Below, one piece after another: positions 171 to 37,378 of a DNA stretch of 37,378 bases. Within the stretch, counting starts at the first letter, position 1; every line of letters starts with the position of its first letter. A model generated the notes under the pieces. It did not search any database. It saw only the letters and a list, made by a program, of their open reading frames with translations, and was not told the DNA's origin. The translations under genes and the position numbers were made by a program. Source of the stretch: a virus; IMG/VR virus record IMGVR_UViG_3300010234_000030, positions 1 through 37,378 of that record. One strand, written 5' to 3'.

Positions 171-290
171 TTATACGCATTGTTATAAACTGGTGGCTTT
201 TATAGGGTTTGATTGCGTACAGATTGAGCCACTTGTTTATAACACCAAAATAAGTAGCGTTTTAATGCTATTTATTGACTGTTATACGCA
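171..290. promoter_or_regulatory. Direct-repeat / inverted-repeat cluster in non-coding gap 139-316 (candidate ori or operator region)
   Basis: The 9-mer TTATACGCA occurs at 171-179 and 282-290. These copies flank an imperfect inverted repeat, TGTTATAAACTGGTGGC (181-197) and GCCACTTGTTTATAACA (228-244), in which 15 of 17 positions pair across a 30-nt spacer. Confidence 0.4.
255..270 (+). promoter_or_regulatory. Conserved-loop hairpin motif, copy 1 (TAGC-GTTTTAAT-GCTA)
   Basis: The sense strand reads GTAGCGTTTTAATGCTA, upstream of the ATG at 317. The same CGTTTTAATG core is present in sense orientation in four leftward-arm intergenic sites. Confidence 0.5.
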
Positions 291-316
291 GGTTATTAAC
301 TAAAAAAAAACAAACT

Positions 317-8861: not shown

Positions 8862-8873
8862 ATATGCAATTTA

Positions 8874-8905
8874 AGAAAAAAGCCTAATATAACATATCAG
8901 GCTTT
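8874..8905 (-). terminator. Rho-independent terminator (- strand) after the 172-aa tube-like gene
   Basis: The stem pairs AAAGCCT (8879-8885) with AGGCTTT (8899-8905) around a 13-nt loop. On the - strand it is followed by TTTTTTCTT. Confidence 0.6.
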
Positions 8906-8924
8906 AATATAATTTTTATGTAAA

Positions 8925-9443: not shown

Positions 9444-9456
9444 TTATTATAATGTT

Positions 9457-9482
9457 TTAAAAAGGGGTTAACTAAAACCCCT
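9457..9482 (-). terminator. Rho-independent terminator/attenuator (- strand) after the capsid gene
   Basis: The stem pairs AGGGGTT (9463-9469) with AACCCCT (9476-9482) around a 6-nt loop. On the - strand it is followed by TTTTT. Confidence 0.6.
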
Positions 9483-9491
9483 ATGTTTATA

Positions 9492-10680: not shown

Positions 10681-11797
10681 TAGCTCTATAATATCTTCTT
10701 TTTTCTAATTCAGTCATTTTAGAAAACTCCACAGGACTTGCTGTTTTAACTGGTTTTCTAATCTCCGTGTTCGACAACTCGACAACTTCTTTTTTCAACT
10801 CTTCATTTTCCTTCTTCAAATCTTCTGTTTGCTTGGAAAACTCTGTTTTGATCTCTTCAATCTTTTTGTCCGTGTCTTCGCTGTATTTAATCAATAATGA
10901 TTTAATCTGGTTTGTCAAATCGTCGTTAGAAGCTTCTGGTTTTGCTTCTGGTGCTTGCTCTTCTGCCATTTCTTGTTGTTCTTTTTGTTTAACTTCTGTT
11001 ACTGTTGAGTCTTCCGAAACAACTACAACCCCCATTTCTGTTTCATAATCACCCATAGGCAATGGCAATCTCTCACCATCTTCTGTTTGTGACCAAACGG
11101 CAGCTCCTTGCATTATTTCTTCTCCATCGAAATAAATGTCTATGTTGCCATCCGAGGTTTTAACCGTTCCGAATTTTACTTCTTCTTTTTTTAAGAAGTT
11201 TTTAGTAAACCATACTTTAAGGTCTGCAAAAACATCTTTCTCTTGCTCTTCTGCCATTTTTATACTTGATTTTAAGTTAATTTCTTGTAGGTCTACCATA
11301 GCATCTATGCTAAAGCCTTGTACCTTTCCTGTTTTTACGTATTCATTCCATATTTCATCATTGTCCACTTTCATAGAAGCCATCCAAGTTCCTTTGGGGT
11401 AACTAAAACCGTAAACATTTGACTTGTCGTTTTTTGGGTCTTCAACTATCCAACTTTCTACAAAAGAAACATTTGGTATTTTATCCTCTTTGCTATGTTC
11501 TATTGTTGAATTCCTTTGATAACCCTGTTTGAAAAAGTTGTGCGCCAAGTTTTTTATAGTCTCTTCCTTGAAAACCATATTAAACTCTTCGCCTCCTTGA
11601 TTTCTATATACAAGCTTATTGGGTTCTAATACTAGACCCATTAAAATACGCTCTTCTTTGTTTACTTCTGCTAATTGGATTTTATCTTGCTTGGAAAGCG
11701 TTATAAACAAACCTTCCATTGCAGGGTCTTCGACTAAAGATATGCCGAATACGCCATCTGTGTTGTTAGAATTAAATATAGCCTCGTATGTTTTCAT
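10670..11797 (-). CDS. Prohead protease (XkdF / S78_2-like) fused to acidic coiled-coil scaffold-like domain
   Basis: The N-terminus shows GISLVEDPAMEG ... STIEHSKED ... FVESWIVEDP ... GTWMASMKVDNDEIWNEYVKTGKVQGFSIDA, a pattern seen in XkdF-type phage proteases. The C-terminal ~170 aa are Glu/Lys-rich coiled coil. Confidence 0.6.
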   Translation of the reverse strand: MKTYEAIFNSNNTDGVFGISLVEDPAMEGLFITLSKQDKIQLAEVNKEERILMGLVLEPNKLVYRNQGGEEFNMVFKEETIKNLAHNFFKQGYQRNSTIEHSKEDKIPNVSFVESWIVEDPKNDKSNVYGFSYPKGTWMASMKVDNDEIWNEYVKTGKVQGFSIDAMVDLQEINLKSSIKMAEEQEKDVFADLKVWFTKNFLKKEEVKFGTVKTSDGNIDIYFDGEEIMQGAAVWSQTEDGERLPLPMGDYETEMGVVVVSEDSTVTEVKQKEQQEMAEEQAPEAKPEASNDDLTNQIKSLLIKYSEDTDKKIEEIKTEFSKQTEDLKKENEELKKEVVELSNTEIRKPVKTASPVEFSKMTELEKRRYYRANEK

Positions 11798-11881
11798 ATA
11801 ATAATCAAAATAAATTTAATATTATTACTATTTATTAGTAATAAAATACTATATTTGACTATTAGTTTTAGTTTGGCTAAT

Positions 11882-11889
11882 CAAATATA
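11882..11889 (-). promoter_or_regulatory. Candidate -7 box (TATATTTG on - strand) for the head operon
   Basis: The + strand CAAATATA is the reverse complement of TAnnTTTG. It lies 85 nt upstream of ATG 11797 and downstream of the terminator that follows the TMP-like gene. I saw no well-spaced -33 TTTG. Confidence 0.3.
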
Positions 11890-11934
11890 ACATTTTTTTC
11901 TCAAAAAGTTGGTTATTTTTTTGATTATTAGTAT

Positions 11935-11961
11935 AAAAGAGCGTATCGGACGCTCTTTTTT
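11935..11961 (-). terminator. Strong hairpin terminator (bidirectional shape) 4 nt after the TMP-like gene stop
   Basis: A perfect 10-bp stem, AAAAGAGCGT (11935-11944) with ACGCTCTTTT (11950-11959), encloses a 5-nt loop. U-runs follow the stem on both strands. Confidence 0.75.
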
Positions 11962-11964
11962 CGT

Positions 11965-13893
11965 TTATATAGTACTGCTTTCTATTATATTTCTATTCAA
12001 TTCCTGACTTGTTGTCATATTTGAACTAACAACAAAAGCCTCTATTGGTTGCTGCTCCCTTGCAAGACTTTCGGCTATTTGATTTGTTCCCGTTCCTTGT
12101 ACAACATTGAAGCTTGGCGCGGATGCTTCTGATCCTCCGCTACCTTGCGTGCTTCCTCCCTCTACATTTCCACCTTGCTTTAATTGACTAAGCGCGTTCT
12201 TTGTAGCTAATACGGATGAGGCTATCGATATACCTGCACCGACATTGTTTGCTGCTCTCTCCGCTGCCGCCAATGCAATCCCTCCAGGCAATGCAGCATA
12301 TTTTAAAGTAGCCGCTGCGTTTGCTGCTTGCGTGTTTATTATTGTCTTACCTACACCGACCGCATTTTCAGCTATTACAGAAGCGGCTTGTAACGCTCTT
12401 GATTTGTCACCAAGTTGTTTAATTAGGTCGATTCCTCTAGATACATTACTTATATTTGATTCTCGTATTTTCTTTTTGGCTTCCGCAACCGCCTTTTCGT
12501 CTGCTAATTGTTGTTTTAGACTTTCCGCTGCGTTTGCTGTTATTGCATTGTCTATTTCTTGCTTTCTTGATAAATATTCATTTTCAGCGTCAACCCTTGC
12601 CTGTGTTCCAAGGGCAAACAACTCCCTTTTTCTTTCAATGTCTTCTAAGATTAATTCATTTTCAATTAAAAGCTTTTCTTTTTGCTTTTCTAATTGAAGG
12701 GATTTTTCTTCTTCTTGCGATGCGTCAAACTCCAATTGCTCCAATCTTCTTTCCTTTTCTGCATCGGATAAACTTTGGTTAAGTTGTATCTGCTCTTTTA
12801 ATAAAGCGTTTCTGTTTGTTAGTTGTTCGCTTTCTTGCCCTGCAAGTCTTTCCTGTACATCAATTAAATCTGTTTGTAATTGGTATATCTCATTAGTTCG
12901 CTCTATAGTTACACCTAGTGCGTTCTGCTCTTGTTGCAATCCAGAAATCCTAGCCTTTATTGTTTTGGCTTCCACATCATTTTGAAGTCTTAATACTTCG
13001 CTTAACTCTTCGTTAGCCTCTATCCTTCTATCAATGGACAACTGCTGATCATCCCTGATTTGTCTTAGTATCTCCGCATCCTTTTGATACTGCAATTGTA
13101 GACGTTGTTGTTGAAGTGCTAGTAACTCAAAATTGTTTCGAGCCTGTGTAATGTTCTTTGCTTGCTCAATTGATGCTGATATGCTTATTTCTTTTATTCC
13201 CTCTATGGTTTTACTGGTTAATGTTCCAACCTCACCCACTGCCTCGCTAAAGTTAGTGACTACGTCTAAACCTGCTTTTACAGCTTCTTCGCCTACTTCT
13301 TTTATTTTTAATGCTGTTTCATCAAATTCCTTTTGGAGTTTATCTATTGTTTCAGGGTCTTTATCTCCAAAGAATGATTTTTCCCATATTAATTGCGCAC
13401 CAGTTATGGCTTGTTTTATTCCAAAAAATGCAAGCTTCAATGGTGTAAGTTGTAGAGTAATAAGACCACCAAGAACCTTACCCAATGCGTCAAATCCTCC
13501 TGTTGCTTCTCTTGTGTATTTAATAGCATCGATAATTACCCCAACCGTTTTATTGAATACGACATTAACAGTAGTCATTGCGGTAGAGAACAAATCGGCA
13601 ACTTCTTGGTTTGATAATAAAACATCTTTGAAAGTGTTGAATGCGGATATTATAAGACCGATTCCAATAGCCTTAAAAGCCACACCAATACCACTAATAC
13701 CCTTTTGTATCGATTTTAACCCCTTCTCGCTGTTCTTGGCACTTTTTCCTAAATCATCAACACTATCGTTTAGTTTCTCCTGTTGCTTGTCGGCTTCCTT
13801 TTGCTGCTTCACCATATCACCGAACAGGTCTTTTATATCATCTGCCGCCTGTTTGGTTTCAGCTATTATTTTTATTACTTTCTCGATCGCCAT
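11965..13893 (-). CDS. Tape measure-like protein
   Basis: 642 aa. It has N-terminal hydrophobic segments (ISGIGVAFKAIGIGLIISAF), a long central heptad-rich Gln/Glu/Leu region, and an Ala/Gly-rich C-terminus. Confidence 0.6.
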   Translation of the reverse strand: MAIEKVIKIIAETKQAADDIKDLFGDMVKQQKEADKQQEKLNDSVDDLGKSAKNSEKGLKSIQKGISGIGVAFKAIGIGLIISAFNTFKDVLLSNQEVADLFSTAMTTVNVVFNKTVGVIIDAIKYTREATGGFDALGKVLGGLITLQLTPLKLAFFGIKQAITGAQLIWEKSFFGDKDPETIDKLQKEFDETALKIKEVGEEAVKAGLDVVTNFSEAVGEVGTLTSKTIEGIKEISISASIEQAKNITQARNNFELLALQQQRLQLQYQKDAEILRQIRDDQQLSIDRRIEANEELSEVLRLQNDVEAKTIKARISGLQQEQNALGVTIERTNEIYQLQTDLIDVQERLAGQESEQLTNRNALLKEQIQLNQSLSDAEKERRLEQLEFDASQEEEKSLQLEKQKEKLLIENELILEDIERKRELFALGTQARVDAENEYLSRKQEIDNAITANAAESLKQQLADEKAVAEAKKKIRESNISNVSRGIDLIKQLGDKSRALQAASVIAENAVGVGKTIINTQAANAAATLKYAALPGGIALAAAERAANNVGAGISIASSVLATKNALSQLKQGGNVEGGSTQGSGGSEASAPSFNVVQGTGTNQIAESLAREQQPIEAFVVSSNMTTSQELNRNIIESSTI

Positions 13894-20262: not shown

Positions 20263-20741
20263 TCAACCACACTCATCGGCATACCCTTCATCTTTTCAGC
20301 CGTTGCTTTTGTACCTGTGTACGGTTCTATCTCATAACTCCCAAAACCATCCTTCTTCGTAACAGGTCTAAATAATATCGCCATCAATTTATTATGTGTT
20401 TCTATCTTGTCAAATGGGTACAACTGCAAATCGATGAATTCCTTTGTTGTTATGTCGTCGTTGTTTAAGCTCGGAATAAAACCATACTCCACACCATCCA
20501 TCTTAAAAGTATTTACAAATTCCACCTCTTTGTTTAGAGCTTGTAATATAGAGTTAAGTAGAAAATCGTAATCATTTTTAGATATGTTTTCCACTTGGTC
20601 TAATGGTATGTCGTAAAAGATACTAACGGCATTGTTGTTCAATGTTCTTTCGTCTGCATTTTCATCCTCCAATATCTTAGCATAACTTTGATATTTCCCT
20701 AGTGTTAATTCTGCTCTATTCTCTGGTATTGTAACCTTCAT
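20175..20741 (-). CDS. Tail assembly chaperone-like protein (0-frame product, 188 aa)
   Basis: This ORF lies immediately after terL and contains the slippery CTT TTT TTT TTA near its 3' end. The two-product architecture resembles G/GT chaperones. Sequence-level similarity is an impression only. Confidence 0.45.
   Translation of the reverse strand: MKVTIPENRAELTLGKYQSYAKILEDENADERTLNNNAVSIFYDIPLDQVENISKNDYDFLLNSILQALNKEVEFVNTFKMDGVEYGFIPSLNNDDITTKEFIDLQLYPFDKIETHNKLMAILFRPVTKKDGFGSYEIEPYTGTKATAEKMKGMPMSVVDGALLFFLTLLEDLLNASQKFTEVQPVKV
20241..20252 (-). promoter_or_regulatory. Slippery homopolymer (U10; U UUU UUA in the 0 frame)
   Basis: The + strand A10 at 20242-20251 gives a - strand C TTT TTT TTT A. 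The 0 frame and -1 frame are both open across it. Confidence 0.6.
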
Positions 20742-20771
20742 ATTATAACAAATATAGTGATTTTTAATTAA

Positions 20772-22064
20772 TTACATTATTGATATGTGCGACCTCTTTA
20801 ACTCAAAATAGAATCTCATCATAATACTATCCCATTCATCAGGTGATCTTCCAATCATTTCCTTTACCTTATCCTTTGATACTAAAGCCACTTTACCATC
20901 CTTGTCAATGTCTTTTTGTTTAACCTGTTCCATTTCTTCTGATGTGGTTTCAATTACCGCGGAGTTGTCACAAAGCTCCCCAACTTCCCCGTTATTTATT
21001 TTCTTAGCCATATGAAACCCACATTGCGATTTTAAGTTATTAAAGTTCTCGTCTTTTAGCGCTCTACTGCCGTTAACAAAACCCTTGCACTTTAGAAAAT
21101 CGACAACACCGCCACCGACTCCATCCTCATCTGCTATAACAAATCCAAGGGGAATCTTGTGTTTAACCATTAATTCTTTTGCTTTAGAAACTACAACGGT
21201 TAAATCACTCTTTGTTATTTGAAACCTCTCTATACATAACCATCCGTGCCAAACTCTATAGACAGTCGTGTCTTTTCCTTTTCTTGCTACATCAATGGTT
21301 ATGTATTTCCTTCCTTCTGGCTGTATGTGTATCGGATTCCAATAATCCGTTATTGCATCTTGATTAATCAATGTGCTTGGATCGTCGTCATACTCCCAAT
21401 TGCCGTAATATAATCTTTGTTTGCTATTGTTATCTAAAGACAATAAGGATTCTAGGTAAGACTTAGGTAGGTGTGGATTATCTGTCGGAAGAGCCTGTAT
21501 AAACTTTTTTGTTGGCTCTAACGTTTCGTCTCTATTCTTTTTGTAAAACTCTTTGTATGTCCAATTCTTTGCAGGGTTGCAACTTCCTAAAACCTTGGGT
21601 ATTAAACCGAAGTATTTTAATTTGTATCTACACCTTGAAAGAACTATCTGCCAAGCTTTGTGAACTACTTGGTTGCACTCGTCTATAAAAGCGCCACATA
21701 TCTCCAAAGAACCTAGCCCATCGAAGTTGGGATCGCTAGGATATAAAAACAAGTCTTTTAAAAGTATCTCACTACCATTATTCCAAGTTATTATGTTGCT
21801 TTGTCCGTTGTATTTAAATTGATCTGTTATATTGAACTTAGAAGCCAACTCAAAGAATGTATTTAGTGTGGTTTCCTTTAGTGACTTTAATTTCGACCTA
21901 CCCATTAACCATCTACTTCCTGGGTATTTCTGGCAACACTCTATTAACCACAAACAGCCAAGAGCGGATTTACCACCCCCTGCTGCACCTCCATAAAGCA
22001 CCTCCTTAGTCGTAGAGTCTTTTAGATAATATGTTGCGTGTTCCTGTTTAAGAAGTAGATTCAT
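20772..22064 (-). CDS. terL: Terminase large subunit
   Basis: 430 aa. It has a Walker A motif (YGGAAGGGKSALG), a Walker B motif (CGAFIDECNQ), and C-terminal nuclease-type acidic motifs (ITIDVARKGKDTT, VIADEDGVGGG). Confidence 0.9.
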   Translation of the reverse strand: MNLLLKQEHATYYLKDSTTKEVLYGGAAGGGKSALGCLWLIECCQKYPGSRWLMGRSKLKSLKETTLNTFFELASKFNITDQFKYNGQSNIITWNNGSEILLKDLFLYPSDPNFDGLGSLEICGAFIDECNQVVHKAWQIVLSRCRYKLKYFGLIPKVLGSCNPAKNWTYKEFYKKNRDETLEPTKKFIQALPTDNPHLPKSYLESLLSLDNNSKQRLYYGNWEYDDDPSTLINQDAITDYWNPIHIQPEGRKYITIDVARKGKDTTVYRVWHGWLCIERFQITKSDLTVVVSKAKELMVKHKIPLGFVIADEDGVGGGVVDFLKCKGFVNGSRALKDENFNNLKSQCGFHMAKKINNGEVGELCDNSAVIETTSEEMEQVKQKDIDKDGKVALVSKDKVKEMIGRSPDEWDSIMMRFYFELKRSHISIM

Positions 22065-22485
22065 TTGGATTTATTCCGTTACCTAGACTTATAACAGCCT
22101 GTATCGGCTTATCCCCTCCCTGTAATGTTGTTTCTACCTTGTCGCCATACTTCTTGGGGTTCAATTTGGATAACTCCCATTTCTTGCTGTCTATCTTTAA
22201 CCTTTGAAGATTAACCCAAGCAGGGTCTATTTTACCCGAGTCCTTGTCTCTTTCTGGCTTTTCGTTGTAGTCTTGTTCTATGCTCTCAAACTTAGCCACA
22301 GCCCTTTCTTGGCACGCGTGCGCGTATTGTTTTACTCTTTCATCATCTTCATCCAACCACTTATAAAAAGTCCTAGAACTAGGCTTATCCGAATCCCTCA
22401 AAACACTTCTCAACGACTCTCCTTGTTCTATTCTTTCAAGCACATCGTTAAAAATTTCTTTTATTTCTTCTTCTGTATATCCCAT
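22048..22485 (-). CDS. terS: Terminase small subunit
   Basis: 145 aa. The N-terminal HTH (GESLRSVLRDSDKPSSRTFYKWLDEDDERVKQYAHA) and KIDSKKWELSKLNPKKYGDK are typical of a common TerS family. The gene overlaps terL by 17 nt. Confidence 0.8.
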   Translation of the reverse strand: MGYTEEEIKEIFNDVLERIEQGESLRSVLRDSDKPSSRTFYKWLDEDDERVKQYAHACQERAVAKFESIEQDYNEKPERDKDSGKIDPAWVNLQRLKIDSKKWELSKLNPKKYGDKVETTLQGGDKPIQAVISLGNGINPNESTS

Positions 22486-23954: not shown

Positions 23955-23983
23955 TTTATTTGTGTTTTAATTAATAACATTGT

Positions 23984-24008
23984 TTATGTAGCATTAAAAC
24001 GACTACAT
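23984..24008 (-). promoter_or_regulatory. Conserved-loop hairpin motif, copy 2
   Basis: On the + strand, TATGTAG (23984-23990) is followed by the loop CATTAAAACGA and then CTACATA (24002-24008). The - sense reads TATGTAG-TCGTTTTAATG-CTACATA. It lies between stop 24024 and start 23954. Confidence 0.55.
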
Positions 24009-24023
24009 ACACGGGTGTTGTAG

Positions 24024-24368
24024 TTAATTTCCAAAAGTCAGTATATTTTGGTAGTGTCTATAAAGGTTTCGCTTCTCAAAGTAACCGCATCCTTTTTTAT
24101 AAAGTTTTGGTGTTTTGGTTTCTGTATATCCACCATCTAATAACCAATTTTGAAATTCAGTGCTATCTATTTTTGGCAACATATCCACAACAACAACGGG
24201 TGCAGTTAATTTTTCAACTACTTTGGTTATAGCATTTAATGAATCTATCCACCCAAAAGCATACTCTGGAGTTCTATCTTTTAATTGTTCTTCTGTTGGT
24301 TCTACTGCTCTAATTTTCTTTATTAATTCTTCCATTTCCTTTATCTGTTTTAAATCGTTAAAAATCAC
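24024..24368 (-). CDS. Hypothetical protein
   Basis: 114-aa ORF with no motif recognised. Confidence 0.55.
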   Translation of the reverse strand: MIFNDLKQIKEMEELIKKIRAVEPTEEQLKDRTPEYAFGWIDSLNAITKVVEKLTAPVVVVDMLPKIDSTEFQNWLLDGGYTETKTPKLYKKGCGYFEKRNLYRHYQNILTFGN

Positions 24369-24403
24369 ATTGTTTACAAGGGTCTTTATATCATTTGTTT
24401 AAA

Positions 24404-24446
24404 AAAGAGCATCTACGGTAAACTACTCCATCAAGCAATGCTCTTT
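24404..24446 (-). terminator. Weak hairpin, possible terminator
   Basis: AAAGAGCAT (24404-24412) pairs with ATGCTCTTT (24438-24446) across a large 25-nt loop. On the - strand it is followed by TTTTTT. Confidence 0.25.
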
Positions 24447-24465
24447 ACCCAAAACAAATGAAAAA

Positions 24466-24603
24466 CTACTTACTTTTTTTTATTCCATCTAGATCTTTTT
24501 TAGCTTCCTGTCTTAAAAATTCTTCTAATGCAAATTGAATAGCAGCCTGCGTACAACCATAGTAATATGCTTTTCTTTTTAGTATTTCCTGAAAACTTTC
24601 CAT
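24466..24603 (-). CDS. Hypothetical small protein (45 aa, not in ORF track)
   Basis: Runs from ATG 24603 to TAG 24468-24466 (MESFQEILKRKAYYYGCTQAAIQFALEEFLRQEAKKDLDGIKKSK). Confidence 0.35.
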   Translation of the reverse strand: MESFQEILKRKAYYYGCTQAAIQFALEEFLRQEAKKDLDGIKKSK

Positions 24604-24625
24604 AACACTAATTTTTAAAAATTAA

Positions 24626-24862
24626 TCACATAGTTTGTATTGCCTGTTCTGCTGTTGATTGAGCTATGTCACTGACGCAACTTCCACAAATTTCAGCGTG
24701 ATTTTTACCGCAGGATAAACAGTTAACAATATGTGATTGACCTTGCTTTAGGTATTCCACATAAGCTTCTGCAAATCCAAATATGTGTATCGAACTGCTG
24801 TTTTGGAAATTTTTAGGGGGTTTTTCTCCATATAAGTATTCGTAAAACTCACTTGCTTTCAT
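24626..24862 (-). CDS. Hypothetical protein with CxxC...CxxC zinc-ribbon-like motif
   Basis: 78 aa, containing NCLSCGKNHAEICGSCV. Confidence 0.5.
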   Translation of the reverse strand: MKASEFYEYLYGEKPPKNFQNSSSIHIFGFAEAYVEYLKQGQSHIVNCLSCGKNHAEICGSCVSDIAQSTAEQAIQTM

Positions 24863-24866
24863 AATC

Positions 24867-25394
24867 CTACTTTTTAAAGTTTAATCTCTTTAACTTGTAC
24901 CCATCCACCATTAAAAGAACGTTAATTCCTCTTTGTATGTAGCTGTATGTGTTCTCGTCAGTTATGCCTTTCAATAACAACTTTCCTTCAATTGTAAACA
25001 CGTGGTATGGTATTCCGATAGGTATGCTTTTTATGTTTAACTCCAAGGGATCGTTTGTCGATAGTGTGGAGTCACACTCTACAGGCATATATAATTCTGT
25101 CCATTGTTGGTTTCCTTCAAATGTAACGTTGCAACCGTAAGAGTCGTTTATGATTAAAACTGGTTGGTTGTTTCCTGATCCGTTTGATTGTGTAGATATG
25201 TTCCCTGTTCCGTAAACCCTATCAACTGATAGACTGGATGCGTTTTTTAATACGACATCATAGCCGTTTAGATTGAGTTCTGATATCTCTTGATGTTCTC
25301 CTGGTTGTATTGTCCAGTGTTGAGATAGTGTTACTGTTTGTGCGCTTGTTATTAAAGTAAATAACATTAATGCGATTTGTGTAATTGTTTTCAT
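24867..25394 (-). CDS. Secreted protein with signal peptide and possible T9SS C-terminal sorting domain
   Basis: The N-terminus (MKTITQIALMLFTLITSAQT) is a signal peptide. The C-terminal ~60 aa (IPYHVFTIEGKLLLKGITDENTYSYIQRGINVLLMVDGYKLKRLNFKK) resemble a Por-secretion tail (Y.V....G..V ... G.Y.L.V ... K.KK). Confidence 0.45.
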   Translation of the reverse strand: MKTITQIALMLFTLITSAQTVTLSQHWTIQPGEHQEISELNLNGYDVVLKNASSLSVDRVYGTGNISTQSNGSGNNQPVLIINDSYGCNVTFEGNQQWTELYMPVECDSTLSTNDPLELNIKSIPIGIPYHVFTIEGKLLLKGITDENTYSYIQRGINVLLMVDGYKLKRLNFKK

Positions 25395-25421
25395 AATTTA
25401 TTTGTTTTAGTTAATATTTTT

Positions 25422-25646
25422 CTACCTTCTTTCGCAAGTAATATGATCCGAATAATACATTTTTGTTTTTTCATATCCTTTCGGCACACTTACAAGCTCT
25501 ATTATTTCACATTCTAGACGACTTATGCCACAATCCCAAGCCCCACACACTTCATAACCCTTATCATCAAACTTAGCCACCATTAACAACTCGCCATTTG
25601 ACAACACCCATAAATGTTGCCCTATTTTTATATCTTTAAATTTCAT
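25422..25646 (-). CDS. Hypothetical protein
   Basis: 74-aa ORF that overlaps the upstream gene by 4 nt. Confidence 0.5.
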   Translation of the reverse strand: MKFKDIKIGQHLWVLSNGELLMVAKFDDKGYEVCGAWDCGISRLECEIIELVSVPKGYEKTKMYYSDHITCERR

Positions 25647-25930
25647 AATTGTTTTTGTTTTAAGGTTTGTTTTTTAAGTTCGTAAAGTTTATCTAAATCA
25701 CTCATCATTTTAATAAGTGGTTTATTGTTGTTGGGTTCTGGAATGTACACAGGTCTTTTAAAAACCTTTGCGTGCATAGCGTATATCTTTTGTTTGGATT
25801 CATCACTAAGATTGTTACTTCTTATTTCTGAATAATCTTCAAACTCCTTTTTTGTCAAACACCTTGGTTTGATCTTGGAAGTAAACTCTTGTGTTATCTT
25901 CTCTTTGCATCCGCATCCTTTCTTTGCCAT
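25643..25930 (-). CDS. Hypothetical protein (start at ATG 25930; track GTG 25972)
   Basis: 95 aa from MAKKGCGCKEK. The GTG extension would run into the terminator hairpin at 25963-25998. Confidence 0.5.
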   Translation of the reverse strand: MAKKGCGCKEKITQEFTSKIKPRCLTKKEFEDYSEIRSNNLSDESKQKIYAMHAKVFKRPVYIPEPNNNKPLIKMMSDLDKLYELKKQTLKQKQL

Positions 25931-25962
25931 AGCTTTAAATTTTTTTGTTAAACGAAGATAAT

Positions 25963-25998
25963 AAAAAAGCACAACATATACAACATATTGTGCTTTTT
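25963..25998 (-). terminator. Rho-independent terminator (- strand) after the lipoprotein gene
   Basis: An 11-bp stem, AAAAAGCACAA (25964-25974) with TTGTGCTTTTT (25988-25998), encloses a 13-nt loop. On the - strand it is followed by TTTTTT. Confidence 0.65.
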
Positions 25999-26024
25999 AT
26001 TTTGATAAAATACTTATTTTCTTT

Positions 26025-26744
26025 TTATACGCATCCAATGTTGGGGTCGATTTCAGGCTCTCCCCACGTACCATCTGGATTTACATAACTTATCCATCCG
26101 CACCCTGCTTCGTGCCATATTAAATTACCATCCATATCTAAAGTGTATTCAACTTTTCCGCTAGCGTTGTTTAATATATTGTTGTCGCACCATTCGTTAG
26201 CCTCTATTTCGCTTTCGAACGGAGGATATACCACTCCATAATACTTTAAATAGTGTGTGTTGCCACAACGATAAACACCGTTACCCTGCGAGTTAACGCA
26301 ATCTTGCACCTCTTCGCATCCTTGGTTTCCTATTCCTCCTCCTGTATCATTAGGAGCTAATACTTTACTGCCTCCAACAGTGTCAGCACCAATTGACAAG
26401 CACCCAATTGCAACAGCTAAAGGAATAGCGGAATAGTTAAAATTAGCATTTATTTGATCTGTATAATATACTTCACCATTCTCATCAGCTATAGTTATAG
26501 TAACAGAACCATTTAAATGAATGTTTACATTATATGTATGACCATCCGAATCAGTAGTACTACAAGGTTCAACATTTAATAAAGGATCAACTTGTATCAT
26601 TTCGGTATTTGACATATTAATTTTAAGTTGATCTATTTTTTCTTGTCGTAAATCTTTTTCTGCATTAATATCTTCTACTTCACAAGAAGTAAATCCAATA
26701 AATGCAATAAGAAGCAATGCGGTTAGTGTTTTAAATTGTTTCAT
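26025..26744 (-). CDS. Cys-rich lipoprotein with acidic post-Cys segment (candidate surface-exposed lipoprotein)
   Basis: The start is ATG 26744: MKQFKTLTALLLIAFIGFTSC|EVEDINAEKD (signal peptide plus lipobox Cys). The mature protein has 11 further Cys residues. A terminator lies directly downstream. Confidence 0.65.
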   Translation of the reverse strand: MKQFKTLTALLLIAFIGFTSCEVEDINAEKDLRQEKIDQLKINMSNTEMIQVDPLLNVEPCSTTDSDGHTYNVNIHLNGSVTITIADENGEVYYTDQINANFNYSAIPLAVAIGCLSIGADTVGGSKVLAPNDTGGGIGNQGCEEVQDCVNSQGNGVYRCGNTHYLKYYGVVYPPFESEIEANEWCDNNILNNASGKVEYTLDMDGNLIWHEAGCGWISYVNPDGTWGEPEIDPNIGCV

Positions 26745-26882
26745 AAAAATTGCGTTGGTCGCCACCGTTTTTAATTTACTCCTACTCTATTAAATGGTTT
26801 TCGGATTACCCACGTTTATTTTTGATCTAATTGATTATTTTGTTTAATGACTAATACCTTGTTTTTTTCATAATTTTAATAT

Positions 26883-27065
26883 TTAAAAAATGCTGTTTAG
26901 AATTTTAGCAGAATCAATAAAATCTTTTGCAGGCATTTCAGTTTTTACTTGTACTATAAATCCATTAACCTTTTCAATTTTTATAGTATACTCTGCAAAT
27001 TCATAATCAAGTCCTTCTTTTTTTCTTGTAAAAACTTTTCGTAATTCTTGCAGGATTCGTGCGCT
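26883..27065 (-). CDS. -1 frame open region downstream of an A AAA AAG heptamer (proposed extension of the 26981..27136 ORF)
   Basis: This frame is open for 61 codons stop-to-stop (...RKKEGLDYEFAEYTIKIEKVNGFIVQVKTEMPAKDFIDSAKILNSIF*). Its only ATG sits 17 codons from the end. Confidence 0.35.
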   Translation of the reverse strand, partial: SARILQELRKVFTRKKEGLDYEFAEYTIKIEKVNGFIVQVKTEMPAKDFIDSAKILNSIF

Positions 27066-27136
27066 TCATAAGTCTTATAGTATTTATGATTTGCTTTGTC
27101 TTTTTTGTAGCTATCGTAAGTTTTTGGCTTATTCAT
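26981..27136 (-). CDS. Hypothetical small protein (51 aa in the 0 frame, not in ORF track)
   Basis: From ATG 27136: MNKPKTYDSYKKDKANHKYYKTYEAHESCKNYEKFLQEKKKDLIMNLQSIL*. It contains GAA AAA AAG, the - sense of the + strand T7 at 27018-27024. Confidence 0.4.
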   Translation of the reverse strand: MNKPKTYDSYKKDKANHKYYKTYEAHESCKNYEKFLQEKKKDLIMNLQSIL

Positions 27137-27161
27137 TTTTTCATAATTTTAGTGTTTATTT

Positions 27162-27173
27162 TAACATAGTATA
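27162..27173 (-). repeat. 12-mer TATACTATGTTA (sense), exact copy 1 of 3
   Basis: The + strand TAACATAGTATA lies 26 nt upstream of ATG 27136 and overlaps the 3' arm of hairpin copy 3. Confidence 0.8.
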
Positions 27174-27198
27174 TATCGCATTAAAACGACGATATATA
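27170..27198 (-). promoter_or_regulatory. Conserved-loop hairpin motif, copy 3
   Basis: On the + strand, TATATATCG (27170-27178) is followed by the loop CATTAAAACGA and then CGATATATA (27190-27198). The loop is identical to copy 2. The stem differs from copy 2 at two base pairs, both compensated. Confidence 0.6.
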
Positions 27199-27209
27199 CG
27201 GACGTTAGA

Positions 27210-27225
27210 GTGCATTAAAACGCAC
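27210..27225 (-). promoter_or_regulatory. Conserved-loop hairpin motif, copy 4 (short stem)
   Basis: The + strand reads GTGC-ATTAAAAC-GCAC. It lies 12 nt from copy 3 and shares the same CGTTTTAATG sense core. Confidence 0.4.
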
Positions 27226-27251
27226 AATAACATTGTATAACAAAAATTAAA

Positions 27252-28143: not shown

Positions 28144-28425
28144 TTAAAGTGATTTAAACTCATTAATAGATTTCTCTTTTTGGTTTTTTACTTCTCGAGT
28201 AATAAAATCAATAAAAGTATTACTTAAATTGAATGGTAATGCGATTTGCTCTCTTCCATTATCTAAATCATCAACATCAATTATTAATCTTGGTGTACGG
28301 TTATAAACTTGTGGATTTTTACCTTCGTGATCTGTGTATGTGTATTCAAAGCAATTTAAAGCTTCGTCACACTCTTTAATTTTTTTATCTAAAGCGTTTG
28401 CTCTTTTTAAAGTCTCTTTATTCAT
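28144..28425 (-). CDS. Hypothetical protein
   Basis: 93-aa ORF downstream of a canonical promoter-like element. Confidence 0.55.
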   Translation of the reverse strand: MNKETLKRANALDKKIKECDEALNCFEYTYTDHEGKNPQVYNRTPRLIIDVDDLDNGREQIALPFNLSNTFIDFITREVKNQKEKSINEFKSL

Positions 28426-28504
28426 AATTATTGATTTTTGTTTCGTTCATTTAATCCCGTTTGCGGTTCTTGGTATTTCGAATTAGTTTTGTTAACTATC
28501 AATG

Positions 28505-28536
28505 CAAATATACATCATTCTGTAACAATAAACAAA
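28505..28536 (-). promoter_or_regulatory. Bacteroidota-type promoter (- strand): TTTG-N20-TATATTTG
   Basis: The + strand CAAATATA (28505-28512) is the -7 box TAnnTTTG and CAAA (28533-28536) is the -33 TTTG, with a 20-nt spacer. The element lies about 80 nt upstream of ATG 28425. Confidence 0.5.
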
Positions 28537-28558
28537 CATATTTACATTATTTATTCCA

Positions 28559-28570
28559 TAACATAGTATA
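28559..28570 (-). repeat. 12-mer TATACTATGTTA (sense), exact copy 2 of 3
   Basis: The + strand TAACATAGTATA lies 13 nt downstream of stop 28583, in the 28426-28582 intergenic region. Confidence 0.8.
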
Positions 28571-28582
28571 TAAAACATACTC

Positions 28583-28756
28583 TCACTTACGTTTGTCTAA
28601 GTGATTAGCAGCTTCTATTCTATCCATATTTTTATATACCATACAATAAAGTTGAGGTATTGTAATCCAAATGTAAACCCATTTAGATGTGTATTTCTCG
28701 TAAATATTTAATAAAAATATTAATGGTATTCCTATAATAAATCTTATGTGCTTCAT
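28583..28756 (-). CDS. Small membrane protein (57 aa, not in ORF track)
   Basis: From ATG 28756: MKHIRFIIGIPLIFLLNIYEKYTSKWVYIWITIPQLYCMVYKNMDRIEAANHLDKRK. It has two hydrophobic segments. Confidence 0.4.
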   Translation of the reverse strand: MKHIRFIIGIPLIFLLNIYEKYTSKWVYIWITIPQLYCMVYKNMDRIEAANHLDKRK

Positions 28757-31450: not shown

Positions 31451-31540
31451 AAGGTTTTAAGATACCAGTAAACTATTAAGTTAATACAAAAAACCTTACA
31501 AATCAAGTAGCTTTCCACGTCTACTGTCATTGTAAGGTTT
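31451..31540 (-). promoter_or_regulatory. Mutually exclusive stem pairings in the 5' leader of the 31443 gene
   Basis: The segment 31490-31501 (AAAACCTTACAA) can pair either with 31451-31458 (AAGGTTTT, 8 bp) or with 31530-31540 (TTGTAAGGTTT, 11 bp). The 8-bp partner lies 7 nt from the ATG. Confidence 0.35.
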
Positions 31541-31645
31541 ATGTTAATTTCTTTAAGTTGCTATGATGTGGAAAGGCAACTACAATGCAATATAGTAAAA
31601 ATATATTTAACTATTAAACATATTCTCTATTTTTTTGTTCTGTTT

Positions 31646-31673
31646 TTAAAGTGGTCGAATTTGACCACTTTAA
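31646..31673. promoter_or_regulatory. Perfect 11-bp-arm palindrome (hairpin or operator)
   Basis: TTAAAGTGGTC (31646-31656) is followed by GAATTT and then GACCACTTTAA (31663-31673). No adjacent U-run follows on the - strand, so it is not a classic terminator. Confidence 0.45.
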
Positions 31674-31753
31674 CTATTGTTTTTATCAGTAGGCATAACA
31701 TATAAAATGTAAATAGTATTGTTGCCCATTTAAGTATAATGTGTATCATAGTT

Positions 31754-32353
31754 TTAGTTTTTAGTCCATTGTTCCGCCATAGCTTTGGCAATTCCTGGAT
31801 ATGTTTTACTTCTTAATTTTGATCTGTCATTTGTTTTGGGTAGAAGATGAACTCTCTGCTCTCTTCCGTTTACAATATTTGTCGGCTGTAATTTTGGCAT
31901 ATTCCTTAACCATAAGCAAGTAGCTTTAGTTTCTCCGTGTCCAAATTGCCAAGGCTGTATCACCTGGTCTGGTTTTCTAAATCTTGTACTCATAACCCCT
32001 ATTGGGTTCTCTATTGCTACTTTTGTTATTTTACAGTTGTAAAGTCTCATAAAAAACAAAATCGCTTCTTCCCTCGCTGCTCGTCTTTCTGCGCCTACCA
32101 AAACACCGCTTTTTCTTGCAGGTTGATCCTTATACCATTTATTAGCGCTTACTGTTAAATATGTACAAGTTGGGAAAAAGATGCCCATATCCCAATCTTT
32201 CATTTCTATTGCGTCAAACACATCTGACTTTAAATGCCATTCTGGGTGTCCACCACTACATTCTTGCAAGTCACAAGAATATGCCTCGTGTCCTAATTTT
32301 CTTAATTCTATTGTTACAGCCTGACTCTCTTCGCATCCTACTAATATTTTCAT
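31754..32353 (-). CDS. C5-cytosine DNA methyltransferase-like protein, atypical motif I
   Basis: 199 aa. It has FFPTCTYLT (PC-motif-like catalytic Cys), AIENPIG (ENV-like), TKATCLWLRNMPKL, and RSKTYPGIAKAMAEQW (motif X-like). The N-terminus reads MKILVGCEESQ instead of FxGxG. Confidence 0.45.
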   Translation of the reverse strand: MKILVGCEESQAVTIELRKLGHEAYSCDLQECSGGHPEWHLKSDVFDAIEMKDWDMGIFFPTCTYLTVSANKWYKDQPARKSGVLVGAERRAAREEAILFFMRLYNCKITKVAIENPIGVMSTRFRKPDQVIQPWQFGHGETKATCLWLRNMPKLQPTNIVNGREQRVHLLPKTNDRSKLRSKTYPGIAKAMAEQWTKN

Positions 32354-32364
32354 AGTTTTAGTTT

Positions 32365-32883: not shown

Positions 32884-33096
32884 TTAACGTTTTCTAAAAA
32901 TTCCTTCTAATTTTTCAATCATAAAGTAAAAAGCCATACCACTATAAAACCCTTGGCCTAATTCATTTACACCTAAATGATAAGTCAATGCATAAACAAT
33001 CATCGATGTAACAATAGAAATTGCGTATTGGGCTACACGAGATATAATATTATTTATTGAAAATGCTTTTTTAATATGCTTTTTTAATTCTTTCAT
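32884..33096 (-). CDS. Small two-TM membrane protein, first gene of the leftward arm
   Basis: 70 aa. It has the hydrophobic segments VAQYAISIVTSMIVYALTY and GFYSGMAFYFMI. Confidence 0.5.
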   Translation of the reverse strand: MKELKKHIKKAFSINNIISRVAQYAISIVTSMIVYALTYHLGVNELGQGFYSGMAFYFMIEKLEGIFRKR

Positions 33097-33218
33097 TTGT
33101 TTTCCTTTTGTCCTTGTGTTAATCTTGATTTTGGTTTTTTCTCTACTAGTGTTTTCATAATTTATTTGTTTTGTCTTTTGGTTCTTATTTTCATCTTTAT
33201 ATATTTTGTTTTGTTCAA

Positions 33219-33250
33219 CAAAGGTATGTCAAATAAATGGATTATACAAA
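33219..33250 (-). promoter_or_regulatory. Leftward promoter candidate: TTTG-N20-TACCTTTG
   Basis: The + strand CAAAGGTA (33219-33226) is the -7 box and CAAA (33247-33250) is the -33 box, with a 20-nt spacer. This implies a leader of about 115 nt before ATG 33096. Confidence 0.45.
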
Positions 33251-33349
33251 TATATTTTATTTACGAATATTTTTATTCTATTATTTTGTAGTGTTTACAG
33301 TACTTAACAAAGATTATTATTTTTTACAGTGAAATTATTTATACAATAT

Positions 33350-33381
33350 TTTGGTTTATACCGTATAAAAACATATCTTTG
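33350..33381 (+). promoter_or_regulatory. Rightward promoter candidate: TTTG-N20-TATCTTTG
   Basis: TTTG at 33350-33353 and TATCTTTG at 33374-33381 lie 27 nt upstream of ATG 33408. Together they match the Bacteroidota sigma-A consensus TTTG / TAnnTTTG. Confidence 0.55.
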
Positions 33382-33407
33382 TCTTGTCGAACCAAACAAC
33401 AATTATT

Positions 33408-33740
33408 ATGGATGATAAAATATTTAATATATTGATGAAAAAATTACAATGTGTTAATTGGTGTAAGGGTGAAATAGCTTTTGACGCTAAACACGAAAAC
33501 TATTCAATATCATTTGGAGAGGTTAAGGACGATTCTGTAGATATGATTATAGAGATTTCAGAATTTGGGGCAGATATAGATGGTCTTTGGGTTAATATGA
33601 CACCATCGGACAATCAATACTCATATATGGTTTTGCAAATAGATATGAAGTATGAAGAACTAGAACCAGAAAATACCTGCGAACCTTTTACTATGATAGA
33701 TTACACTCACTTTGAGTCTTTAATATTTAATTCAAACTAA
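33408..33740 (+). CDS. Highly acidic small protein, first gene of the rightward arm
   Basis: 110 aa from ATG 33408 (track TTG 33384 lies inside or next to the promoter). It has about 23 Asp+Glu against 7 Lys and no Arg. Confidence 0.55.
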   Translation: MDDKIFNILMKKLQCVNWCKGEIAFDAKHENYSISFGEVKDDSVDMIIEISEFGADIDGLWVNMTPSDNQYSYMVLQIDMKYEELEPENTCEPFTMIDYTHFESLIFNSN

Positions 33741-34667: not shown

Positions 34668-35003
34668 ATGGATATTACAGAATTAACAAAATGGGTTGTA
34701 GATAGAGGTGATGACTTATATTCTTTAGATAAGCAAGTGCAATTTAAACAGAAGTTAAAAAAATACTTTGATGAGCAAGAATACGATGCTCTTAAAAGAG
34801 ATAGTTATGATTTGCAAAAGATGAAAAATAAAGTACAAGCAATTTGCTTAAAAACCTATGTAGATGAAGATGATATGCAAAGGCATTGCGATAACGACAT
34901 AAAGAAACCTTGTGAAGTAAAAATATACCATAAAGGTAGAAAATATTGGGTAGTACCTCAATATGTAGACGAAGAATACTATAAGATAGTTGATAGTTAC
35001 TAA
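34668..35003 (+). CDS. Hypothetical protein
   Basis: 111-aa ORF followed by two hairpins, the second of which is a terminator. Confidence 0.55.
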   Translation: MDITELTKWVVDRGDDLYSLDKQVQFKQKLKKYFDEQEYDALKRDSYDLQKMKNKVQAICLKTYVDEDDMQRHCDNDIKKPCEVKIYHKGRKYWVVPQYVDEEYYKIVDSY

Positions 35004-35055
35004 CACTCGTTAAATGTATTCTAGGAGGTAATACAATAGAGTGTTAGTAATGTAG

Positions 35056-35092
35056 ATATGCTGTTTGTATCTATATGAACAGCATATTTTTT
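35056..35092 (+). terminator. Rho-independent terminator (+ strand)
   Basis: A 10-bp stem, ATATGCTGTT (35056-35065) with AACAGCATAT (35078-35087), encloses a 12-nt loop and is followed by a TTTTTT run. Confidence 0.7.
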
Positions 35093-35135
35093 ACTATTAG
35101 TTGTTGTAATATTAGGATATTAATACATTTAGTTG

Positions 35136-35143
35136 TATATTTG
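35136..35143 (+). promoter_or_regulatory. Candidate -7 box TATATTTG
   Basis: A perfect TAnnTTTG lies 24 nt upstream of ATG 35167, just after the terminator. I saw no well-spaced -33 box. Confidence 0.35.
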
Positions 35144-35166
35144 ATTAACTTTAAAACTGAAACGAA

Positions 35167-35610
35167 ATGAAAAAACTAGAATTAAAATACTTAGCTCCTT
35201 ATTTACCTTATGGTATTACTTTTAAAATTAATATGTATGATTTCTATACTAAAGAACTTGCAGGGTATAAATTGCGAACATTAAGAATGTATAATATATC
35301 TCAATGTCTTGACGATGGAATCATAGTATTAAGGCCTCTATCTGACTTAACTAAAGAAATACGCATAGATGACCGTGTTACATTAATGTTTATGAAGGAC
35401 TACTTCGTTATAAGTCAATATGATGAAGATGTATTTTTTTTAAATGGAACTATTCCAGATTACTGGAAGTCAATGTTAAATATGCTTAATTCTGGTGACT
35501 ATAAACATCTTGATTATTGGATTTTAGATAAATTATTTGAATGGCATTTCGACGTATTCGGACTAATAGAAAAAGGACTAGCAGTTAACTATAATGAAGT
35601 ACACAAATGA
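35167..35610 (+). CDS. Hypothetical protein
   Basis: 147-aa ORF (LKYLAPYLPYGITF ... LFEWHFDVFGLIEKGLAVN). It resembles a widespread phage family of unknown function. Confidence 0.55.
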   Translation: MKKLELKYLAPYLPYGITFKINMYDFYTKELAGYKLRTLRMYNISQCLDDGIIVLRPLSDLTKEIRIDDRVTLMFMKDYFVISQYDEDVFFLNGTIPDYWKSMLNMLNSGDYKHLDYWILDKLFEWHFDVFGLIEKGLAVNYNEVHK

Positions 35611-36972: not shown

Positions 36973-37378
36973 ATGGAAACTAATATTAAAAAACAAGATT
37001 TACGAGTAGGAAACTTAATAAGATGCTCCAGATATTTAGACCACCAAGAAGCGTTAGATGATTTAGGCGATGATTATACAGAAAATGAAGAATGGTTAAT
37101 AGATACCGTAGTTGGTGTTTGCCATCCTCACGAAGATTTTATGTATTGGTCTGGACTTGATGAAGAAGAATTAATGAATAGAGTTGATGGAATACCTTTA
37201 AGTGAGAAATGGCTAAAAGAATTAGGTTTTGAAGAAACTTCTGAAAACTCAAAAATGTATTTTATGGATGACTTTACTAATTTCAGAAACATAATTAGAA
37301 TTAAAAAGCATCCAACATTAGAAGGATTTATGTTTGTTGCTAGAGACTTTATTTTATGCACTTTGGTTTATGTACACC
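36973..37378 (+). CDS. 5' part of junction-spanning hypothetical protein (162 aa in total, ends at 138)
   Basis: From ATG 36973 (METNIKKQDLRVGNLIRCSRYLD...) the frame is open to the window end with no stop. It continues in frame at base 56 on the circular map. It is absent from the ORF track because no stop lies within the window. Confidence 0.7.
   Translation, partial: METNIKKQDLRVGNLIRCSRYLDHQEALDDLGDDYTENEEWLIDTVVGVCHPHEDFMYWSGLDEEELMNRVDGIPLSEKWLKELGFEETSENSKMYFMDDFTNFRNIIRIKKHPTLEGFMFVARDFILCTLVYVH
37324..37378. repeat. Terminal direct overlap, copy 2 (identical to 1-55)
   Basis: Exact 55-nt identity with the window start. Confidence 0.95.

Follow-up and report, generated by a model that had tools for sequence, protein, structure and literature searches.

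Recurrent intergenic hairpins of a phage genome as putative attC-like cassette-boundary sites of a Bacteroidota-wide family

Integron attC sites are imperfect palindromes bounded by ...YAAC on one side and GTTR... on the other, carried by the mutually complementary R''/R' boxes RYYYAAC and GTTRRRY, in which structure is conserved over sequence. Their terminal structure is variable, and one of the two strands is favoured for folding, a choice set by an unpaired central spacer and an L box with extrahelical bases. An integron integrase (IntI), which has a specific additional domain, recombines them at G|TT. In the integron, a site stands after each gene of a co-oriented array of heterogeneous accessory cargo headed by a simple tyrosine recombinase, and clusters of attC sites without an integrase are termed CALINs. 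These traits recur in a family of hairpins found in the virus record IMGVR_UViG_3300010234_000030, the 37,378 nucleotides of which were analysed over their whole length and are called the window hereafter; the TAAC/GTTA ends of the element match the R''/R' boxes, and orphan clusters of it occur in lytic phages, as for CALINs. We lean towards reading the hairpins as attC-like, structure-specific recombination sites at cassette boundaries, which belong to a Bacteroidota-wide family and are acted on by an Xer/IntI-like recombinase. The hairpin is more likely to mark movable gene modules than to be a phage-specific promoter. It had been pointed out in a preliminary description of the window; that finding is real and much broader than the description could see.

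Promoter-early stem-loop (PeSL) cassettes of T4-type phages are said to have been proposed, in work of 2010 ascribed to Arbiol et al., to promote module shuffling by homologous recombination. They reportedly resemble the present element in their repeated intergenic stem-loop and leader/promoter modules, small accessory genes, plastic regions and shuffling breakpoints. They reportedly differ in being lineage-specific units of a sigma-70 promoter and a stem-loop with no dedicated recombinase, whereas the element described here is common to host chromosomes, has attC-like ends and is tied to a tyrosine recombinase.

Arrays of the recombinase-associated acquired interbacterial defence type (rAID-1) in Bacteroidales contain 'repetitive intergenic sequences reminiscent of integrons', the motif of which is shown as an image (Ross et al. 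2019, 10.1101/471110). The rAID-1 layout, i.e. an XerD-like recombinase, at least two co-directional short genes and intergenic repeats, is found in the element-bearing host loci L439, L349, L314 and L267. The likeness is one of layout and is exact in L439, where a SUKH/SMI1 gene is present and the element follows five consecutive genes. The present family differs from rAID-1 in reaching Flavobacteriales, Cytophagales, Chitinophagales, Saprospiraceae, Ignavibacteria/Chlorobiota and phages, and in a cargo that extends beyond immunity genes of the type VI secretion system. Phage genomes were surveyed for attC sites in a study of 2023, which lists 'P12002L_attC1' as a HattCI-only prediction (PMC9892861, Table S3), and this sequence (TGCTAACGGCTACGGCTAAACGGTCGTTTTAATGCCGTTTTAGCCATTGTTAGGC) is a member of the family, scoring 60.7 bits at NC_028924 30001-30066 with R1, the covariance model of the element. 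The family has thus entered the literature once, as a presumed attC for which the test of a non-cognate enzyme was negative. Our literature searches found no description of the family, of its recombinase association or of its opposite polarity in hosts and phages; they returned primer coincidences only for the loop sequence, and the rAID-1 and phage CALIN papers only for integron-like systems in Bacteroidota.

The preliminary description reported a hairpin with an invariant loop, present in intergenic DNA in the sense of the local genes. Four exact copies of the 10-mer CGTTTTAATG lie at the positions it gave, against 0.08 expected, and none of 100 dinucleotide shuffles reached four copies. All four sit in intergenic DNA, which makes up 7.5% of the window (2,811 nt), and have the same strand as the genes around them; each is enclosed by its own inverted repeat with a stem that differs between copies. 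For 24008-23984 and 27198-27170, the description is right about both compensatory pair changes. One-mismatch variants of CGTTTTAATG are not above chance in the window (9 matches, 5.6 expected), and a fifth, degenerate copy at 23186-23170 escapes the covariance model (E>10) and should be dropped. The hairpins are larger than was described, as evident from three full elements of about 63 nt which the model recognises; the copy at 27225-27210 shares the loop on a 4-bp mini-hairpin and is no full element. R1 finds exactly these three full elements in the window, all of which were seed members of R1. The features are as follows.

27155..27217, (-) strand: element B; R1 cmsearch 58.8 bits, E 3e-11; DNA fold -7.6 kcal/mol, z -3.5
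23968..24030, (-) strand: element A; R1 cmsearch 52.1 bits; fold -5.1 kcal/mol
230..291, (+) strand: element D; R1 cmsearch 49.8 bits; fold -6.3 kcal/mol, z -2.9
27210..27232, (-) strand: composite C, recognised by sequence; fold -3.0 kcal/mol, z -3.6
23955..23967, (-) strand: leader of element A, from direct sequence comparison
27137..27154, (-) strand: leader of element B, paralogous to the leader of element A

Each full element consists of an outer TAAC(G/A)/TGTTA helix and an inner stem of 9-10 bp. Element B reads TAATGCAC-TC-TAACG, a bulge TCC, the 5' arm GTATATATCG(T), the apex CGTTTTAATG, the 3' arm CGATATATAC, TA and TGTTA; the ATG at 27136 is 33 nt downstream of it, and both its outer and inner helices appear in the DNA fold. 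Element A has the R box variant CAACA/TGTTA, an inner stem GTGTATGTAG/CTACATAAAC with one mismatch and the apex TCGTTTTAATG; it begins 15 nt past the stop codon of the open reading frame (ORF) 24024-24368 and finishes 29 nt ahead of the ATG at 23954. In element D the outer helix TATAACA...TGTTATA is 7 bp long, the inner stem AATAAGTAG/CTATTTATT holds one G·T wobble and the apex is again CGTTTTAATG; it is 46 nt upstream of the ATG at 317, and the next downstream ORF is the HNH-like 484-777. The stability of the window copies as folded DNA is modest (-5.1 to -7.6 kcal/mol, z -1.1 to -3.5). The leader of element A, taken with its TGTTA tail, resembles that of element B, with the common pattern TAAA(A)CAC(A/T)AAAT.

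Composite C is made of a half-site TGTTA (27228-27232) and the mini-hairpin GTGC-GTTTTAAT-GCAC (27210-27225), followed by the TAACG of element B, and gets no full-element score from R1. The same architecture, (3' arm-GTTAT)-x4-5-CGTTTTAATG-x4-5-(ATAACG + full element), is found in the unrelated contigs L160, L178 and L198. The composite could be a junction scar or a double site. Within the composites of these contigs and of the window, GTTAT and ATAAC are able to pair with each other.

Searches with the exact 10-mer gave an impression of non-conservation, since 113 loci related by portal or terminase showed no enrichment of it (12 copies in 1.29 Mb); this was overturned by a bipartite pattern scan, which exposed the real family. 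The scan of IMG/VR for CGTTTTAATG-N12-TGTTA yielded at least 119 loci, many with several co-oriented copies. The aligned matches reveal a unit of about 63 nt, composed of ATTG-N4-TAAC(G/A), 3-4 unpaired nucleotides, an arm of 10-13 bp, (T)CGTTTTAATG, the complementary arm and TGTTA. The bulge of 3-4 nt on the 5' arm beside TAACG is the sole regular irregularity of the stem. The terminal part of the element is either the short CGTT-TT-AATG apex or an insert of 40-60 nt. The loop is invariant among the window copies, as was claimed, and not in the family, where long-form members carry 40-60 nt in its place on an unchanged base.

Selection on the structure, which the preliminary description had proposed from a conserved loop and a covarying stem, is strongly supported by covariation. 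In 146 family members with the structure imposed, 12 of the 13 inner-stem pairs show double compensatory changes; double-change cells number 456 as against 257 in shuffles (0 of 500 shuffles reaching the observed value), and the signal collapses when the partner column is shifted by ±1-3. This alignment was collected by a pattern that fixes the loop and TGTTA, and therefore the covariance model R1 was built and its unconstrained matches were examined. In 43 such matches from independent loci, 93% of the cells are paired, compared with 76% after shuffling, and there are 142 double-change cells compared with 54. From the R box to the apex, the stem of these matches is paired throughout (95.6% of cells), and the junction of TAACG with TGTTA invariably holds a G·T pair (42/42). 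The sequence of the 10-13 bp stem is free, and its pairing is required. The end motifs T-A-A-C/G-T-T-A are invariant or at least 90% conserved, although the search pattern itself dictated GTTA; 41-42 of the 43 R1 matches, which are free of that constraint, have them too, as do P12002L and L439. Element A of the window departs from this consensus with CAAC. The flanking pair 12-62 covaries (A-T 36, C-G 23) and is unpaired in 78 of the 146 sequences. RNAalifold on the raw MAFFT alignment returned no pairs, two stem registers being mixed there, which was solved by supplying the structure; de novo collection of repeated 10-mers per locus and a simple hairpin-loop census were too noisy for use. A crossover inside the apex, as in a duplex site of the lox/dif type, was rejected, because the complementarity of the arms is maintained (93-96% paired) and the breaks in homology fall at the base and not at the centre.

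The position of these breaks was located by comparing elements on different contigs. At least 12 independent clusters have a common downstream flank and unrelated upstream flanks, and no converse cases were seen. The ends of the BLAST high-scoring segment pairs peak at the T of TAAC, at -21/-22 from the core. Further breaks are placed at TGTTA by some clusters in which the leader is retained and the hairpin is another one. Identical hairpin types (e.g. GATGATAAACAAT) stand ahead of different leaders, and different hairpins ahead of the same leader. In large phages the shared block often ends near the start codon, and hairpin plus leader are repeated before unrelated ORFs.

The family is associated with a tyrosine recombinase in bacterial chromosomes. 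One element stands after each gene of co-oriented accessory-gene arrays (L297, L255, L349, L439), as in the Tenacibaculum locus L297 with 4 copies in 4 kb among co-oriented genes of 150-210 aa. The flanking host genes are very mixed and include beta-lactamase, GrpB, thioredoxins, esterases, restriction-modification genes and HipA. A recombinase with PF13495 and PF00589 is at the head of the array in 9-10 of about 114 host loci, each viewed over 8 kb. In a 20-kb view, L439 displays the recombinase, then a co-directional array of small genes, including a SUKH/SMI1 immunity gene and a TIR gene, in which five consecutive genes are each followed by one antisense element. The array-head recombinases form one family (33-64% identity), the best NCBIfam match of which is NF040815, 'tyrosine recombinase/integron integrase', and the closest solved structures of which are XerA and IntI4. 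They match TIGR02249 in two stretches with 157-201 bits, under the cutoff of 265; they stay below this integron-integrase cutoff because the IntI insertion is absent. The host recombinases of L267, L314, L343, L347 and L349 have an extra N-terminal region of about 100-190 aa with no Pfam match, which is absent from the phage recombinases (about 265-275 aa).

The same association is observed in phages. Among phage loci anchored on homologues of the array recombinase, 17 of 39 carry elements, as compared to 1 of 41 loci anchored on distant integrases (p = 7e-6) and 2 of 74 terminase or portal loci (p = 8e-8). All 43 elements of the recombinase-anchored loci lie on the recombinase strand, 41 of them within 7 kb upstream of the gene, and these arrays mix short and long forms. 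The ORFs downstream of phage elements are small (median 85 aa), and the distance from the 3' end of the element (TGTTA) to the start codon has a median of about 42 nt and is mostly 28-45 nt. N6/N4 DNA methyltransferases account for 10 of 116 such ORFs, a Mom-like protein and an EcoRI-type methylase are also present, and nearly all the remaining ones are without a Pfam match. In Polaribacter phage P12002L, each of five DNA-modification genes has an element just upstream.

The orientation of the element to its neighbours is opposite in the two settings. In viral contigs the CGTTTTAATG strand is sense to both neighbouring genes in 70 cases and antisense in 1, while at bacterial loci it is antisense to the flanking genes in 61 cases and sense in 11, several of which look like mis-binned phage contigs. 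The ratio of G·T to A·C on the CGTTTTAATG strand is 71:27 in phage copies and 134:28 in host copies. The excess of G·T on the same strand in both sets shows that the same strand is selected to fold, regardless of gene direction. The same folding strand with an opposite gene polarity points to a function at the DNA level with a polarity of its own, and is not what a shared function at the mRNA level would predict. A processing or regulatory role in phage mRNAs may exist.

The distribution of the element is sporadic among the relatives of the window phage, which favours cassette-boundary sites, and wide outside them. It is present in 2 of 74 terminase- or portal-related loci (1.07 Mb). The preliminary description counted a phage-specific promoter or operator among its candidates and held that absence from related phages would speak against its claim; a regulatory site of the lineage is not supported on this criterion. 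Nor is the motif specific to phages; besides being common on phage contigs of other kinds (5-310 kb), it is widespread in chromosomes and metagenome-assembled genomes of Bacteroidota (Flavobacteriales, Bacteroidales, Cytophagales, Chitinophagales, Saprospiraceae) and also of Ignavibacteria/Chlorobiota. P12024S, the closest isolate, has two weak copies which bracket a DNA methyltransferase module. They lie at 32296-32357(-) and 33409-33470(+) (L438), inverted around gp50 and the DNA methyltransferase gp51 like inverted module ends. Only a single match was obtained when GenBank phages were searched by BLAST with a 64-nt element, and the covariance model was then run on fetched genomes. No match to the element was found in Rfam 15 at the gathering threshold in the window and five element-rich loci, or at E<=5 over the five copies of L136 1900-8085. 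In a synteny comparison, the genes flanking the cassettes of the window had no homologues among 350 loci.

If the hairpins are recombination sites, the CGTTTTAATG strand would be the strand that folds, and an Xer/IntI-like tyrosine recombinase would recognise the folded base and exchange strands at its TAA|C end; both the action on the folded site and the cut at this position are proposed here. The mobile unit would be the hairpin with the DNA downstream of it. In chromosomes such units would constitute integron-like (rAID-like) arrays of accessory, immunity and defence genes, and in phages they would comprise DNA methyltransferases as well as early genes of small size, the ORF sharing the strand of the hairpin. 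As no such recombinase was found in the window, its three full sites and one composite would be orphan sites of the CALIN kind, serving as substrates for the recombinase of a host or of a co-infecting phage or remaining as footprints of past module acquisition. Transcribed sites may affect the mRNA as a side effect. A more tentative proposal, which we consider possible and would not press, is a second cassette system analogous to the integron in Bacteroidota and their phages, built on an Xer/XerA-like recombinase without the IntI domain and on folded long-stem CGTT-TT-AATG sites; in phages, where the polarity of the ORF is inverted, it would serve to collect and swap small early genes and methyltransferases that counter restriction, and orphan sites such as those of the window could let lytic phages trade modules with arrays in host chromosomes.

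Several observations weigh against recombination sites of this kind. P12002L_attC1 was the only one of six phage attC candidates without a verified attI1 x attC junction with IntI1 (PMC9892861), an enzyme which is non-cognate for this site. The recombinase is Xer/XerA-like and lacks the IntI insertion, and no tyrosine recombinase was found in the window by a regex scan or by Pfam and PHROGs scans, which covered 38 of its about 78 ORFs. A universal link to the recombinase was rejected, since the close homologue P0054 adjoins variable defence cargo with no detectable element. The geometry of the site also departs from attC in that the extra bases (the 3-4 nt bulge) are on the 5' arm of the folding strand and the 10-nt apex shows far more conservation than is expected of the terminal structure in attC, this apex being found on mini-hairpins without the base as well. 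In phages the polarity is reversed relative to the integron, with the ORF on the folding strand and the site before the ORF. The window copies are in both orientations, so that an active recombinase could invert the DNA between them. Finally, a regulatory cassette also predicts the nearly constant sense orientation of phage elements about 42 nt before a start codon, and a shared block that ends near the start codon fits such a cassette as well as it fits a recombination module. Two further differences from integrons concern the stem, which is long and fully paired here and in attC has an unpaired central spacer and an L box with extrahelical bases, and the recombinase gene, which is usually co-directional with the array rather than divergent.

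In the P0054 contexts (L434-L437), an identical Xer-like recombinase occupies a conserved chromosomal spot after an SBF-like gene, Fic and a 144-aa gene. The downstream cargo differs between them; it may be an MmeI-type enzyme, a restriction-modification system of type III-like make-up together with AAA_21/Schlafen, or hardly anything. L434-L437 have no hairpin of the R1 type, and these contexts may have another site type for the same recombinase clade.

The regulatory cassette is a serious rival, which we hold to be possible and rather doubtful. Hairpin and leader would here act through RNA as a 5' untranslated or intercistronic element before early accessory genes, i.e. as the operator of an RNA-binding protein, a processing or stability site or an insulator, and the repeats would aid shuffling by homologous recombination. 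Such a role accounts for the sense orientation in 70 of 71 co-oriented viral cases, for the clustering of the element's 3' end at 28-45 nt from the ATG, and for a homology block which runs from TAAC to about the start codon before unrelated ORFs. The likeness of leaders A and B agrees with it, G·U wobbles are compatible with a fold of the coding-strand RNA, and the invariant loop, in occurring also on mini-hairpins, suggests sequence-specific loop recognition. A common role at the RNA level fails in hosts, however, where the wobble-bearing strand is antisense to the flanking genes. Long forms without the loop share arrays with short forms, the element is missing from 72 of 74 related loci, no identifiable RNA-binding regulator is encoded in the window, and the association with a recombinase family is left unexplained.

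A selfish palindromic repeat that spreads through intergenic DNA of Bacteroidota and their phages without a dedicated phage function, its co-occurrence with recombinases reflecting shared variable regions, appears improbable. This explanation would group the element with repetitive extragenic palindromes (REP) and bacterial interspersed mosaic elements (BIME), or with miniature inverted-repeat transposable elements. The element is sporadic among relatives; it shares with REP and BIME the form of short intergenic imperfect palindromes in many copies. The free combination of hairpin types with leaders, the presence in many phyla-level lineages of the Fibrobacteres-Chlorobi-Bacteroidetes (FCB) group and the composites of half-site and mini-hairpin also speak for it. 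REPs, however, have RAYT (HUH) transposases and a GTAG head, and neither is seen here, no HUH/RAYT-type transposase having been met among the flanking genes. The element differs from REP and BIME further in its strict orientation rules, which hold in both hosts and phages, and in the regularity of one element per gene in the arrays. The co-orientation of 43 of 43 elements with the recombinase gene and the strong purifying selection on pairing and base motifs also stand against a selfish repeat.

A promoter for a sigma factor of the extracytoplasmic function (ECF) type, for a phage-specific sigma factor or for a phage RNA polymerase, with TAAC as -35 and CGTTTTAAT as -10, or an operator, e.g. 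for the protein of ORF 1116-1664, is very improbable. The AAC-N15-17-CGT spacing of short forms does resemble ECF promoters, in which AAC and CGT stand at a fixed distance of 16-17 nt, phage copies are sense and at a promoter-like distance from start codons, and no host-type TAnnTTTG box lies between element and ATG in the window. The long forms, in which 40-60 nt replace the loop on a preserved base, destroy the -35/-10 spacing and argue against a bipartite promoter, and the covariation of the 'spacer' with the downstream arm is left unexplained. Of about 100 host cases, 61 would have such a promoter directed antisense into the gene before it, and the antisense placement with wobbles on the same strand makes a promoter role shared by hosts and phages, like a shared RNA-level one, hard to reconcile. 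The window has no homologue of P12024S gp33 (sigma-70-region-2-like) and no sigma factor or RNA polymerase among the 38 ORFs scanned; ORF 22048-22485 was tried as a sigma factor and rejected, as it is the small terminase subunit. The arms vary within one genome, unlike those of an operator. An intrinsic terminator or attenuator closing the upstream gene is likewise highly unlikely, for although the hairpin of copy A begins 15 nt past the upstream stop codon and attC sites have been discussed as weak terminators (PMC9892861), the stems are AT-rich and weak (-5 to -8 kcal/mol) with no T-run after any copy, host copies fold best on the antisense strand, and canonical terminators with a GC stem and a T-run stand elsewhere in the window, at 8861-8925, 9443-9492, 11797-11965, 25972-26025 and 35003-35167.

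If the hairpins are indeed recombinogenic, they would explain in concrete terms how the 'early-gene' regions of Bacteroidota phages, flavobacterial ones included, become mosaic, and would offer a route of gene traffic between phages and rAID-type immunity and defence arrays of hosts. The integron principle of a folded single-strand site and a tyrosine recombinase would then reach another recombinase lineage, another phylum and lytic viruses. The model of about 63 nt serves as a marker of cassette boundaries in marine and gut viromes and flags accessory cargo, methyltransferases being enriched downstream of the element. The system is open to experiment, since two of the phages concerned, Polaribacter phage P12002L and Nonlabens phage P12024S, are available in culture.

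The window is a complete phage genome. Positions 1-55 are an exact copy of 37324-37378, as expected of a circularly assembled complete genome or a short terminal repeat. Pfam and PHROGs identify portal, large and small terminase subunits, prohead protease and tail proteins. The Nonlabens (Persicivirga) phages P12024S/L are distant relatives (portal identity 37%), and owing to this kinship a marine flavobacterium is the probable host. The genes form a leftward arm between about 33.1 and 3.0 kb and a rightward arm that starts at 33.4 kb and continues past the end to about 2.8 kb. The HNH-like ORF 484-777 has a weak match to Pfam HNH_3 (E 4.7e-4, under the curated cutoff). ORF 1116-1664 (+) has an N-terminal DnaA-C-like helix-turn-helix (PF08299, E 4.6e-7, just under the cutoff), a domain which is also found on 1 of the 116 element-associated ORFs of other phages. 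ORF 26025-26765 has no relative but itself in IMG/VR, JGI metagenomes and a set of 5.8 billion proteins. The 215-nt gap upstream of it contains a match to the Rfam DUF805b RNA motif (RF02914) at 26779-26814 (-), scoring 38.0 bits with a gathering threshold of 35.6 (E 4e-7).

Other intergenic signals also occur in the window. Bacteroidota-type -7 boxes (TAnnTTTG, mostly TATATTTG) are found in the gaps 11797-11965, 20741-20772, 28425-28583, 33096-33384 and 35003-35167 and none beside the hairpins, so that host-type promoters and hairpin elements use different intergenic regions. Hairpins resembling canonical intrinsic terminators, with a GC-rich stem and a T-run (e.g. GGGGTTTTAGTTAACCCCTTTTT), occur at 8861-8925, 9443-9492, 11797-11965, 24368-24466, 25972-26025, 31530-31754 and 35003-35167; they are a class separate from the attC-like hairpins. 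The sequence ATGTTAT or ATGTTA is repeated in intergenic DNA, e.g. at 8885, 11880, 23975, 27160, 27232, 28560 and 31690; it is in part the TGTTA tail of the element, and several instances are located outside any element.

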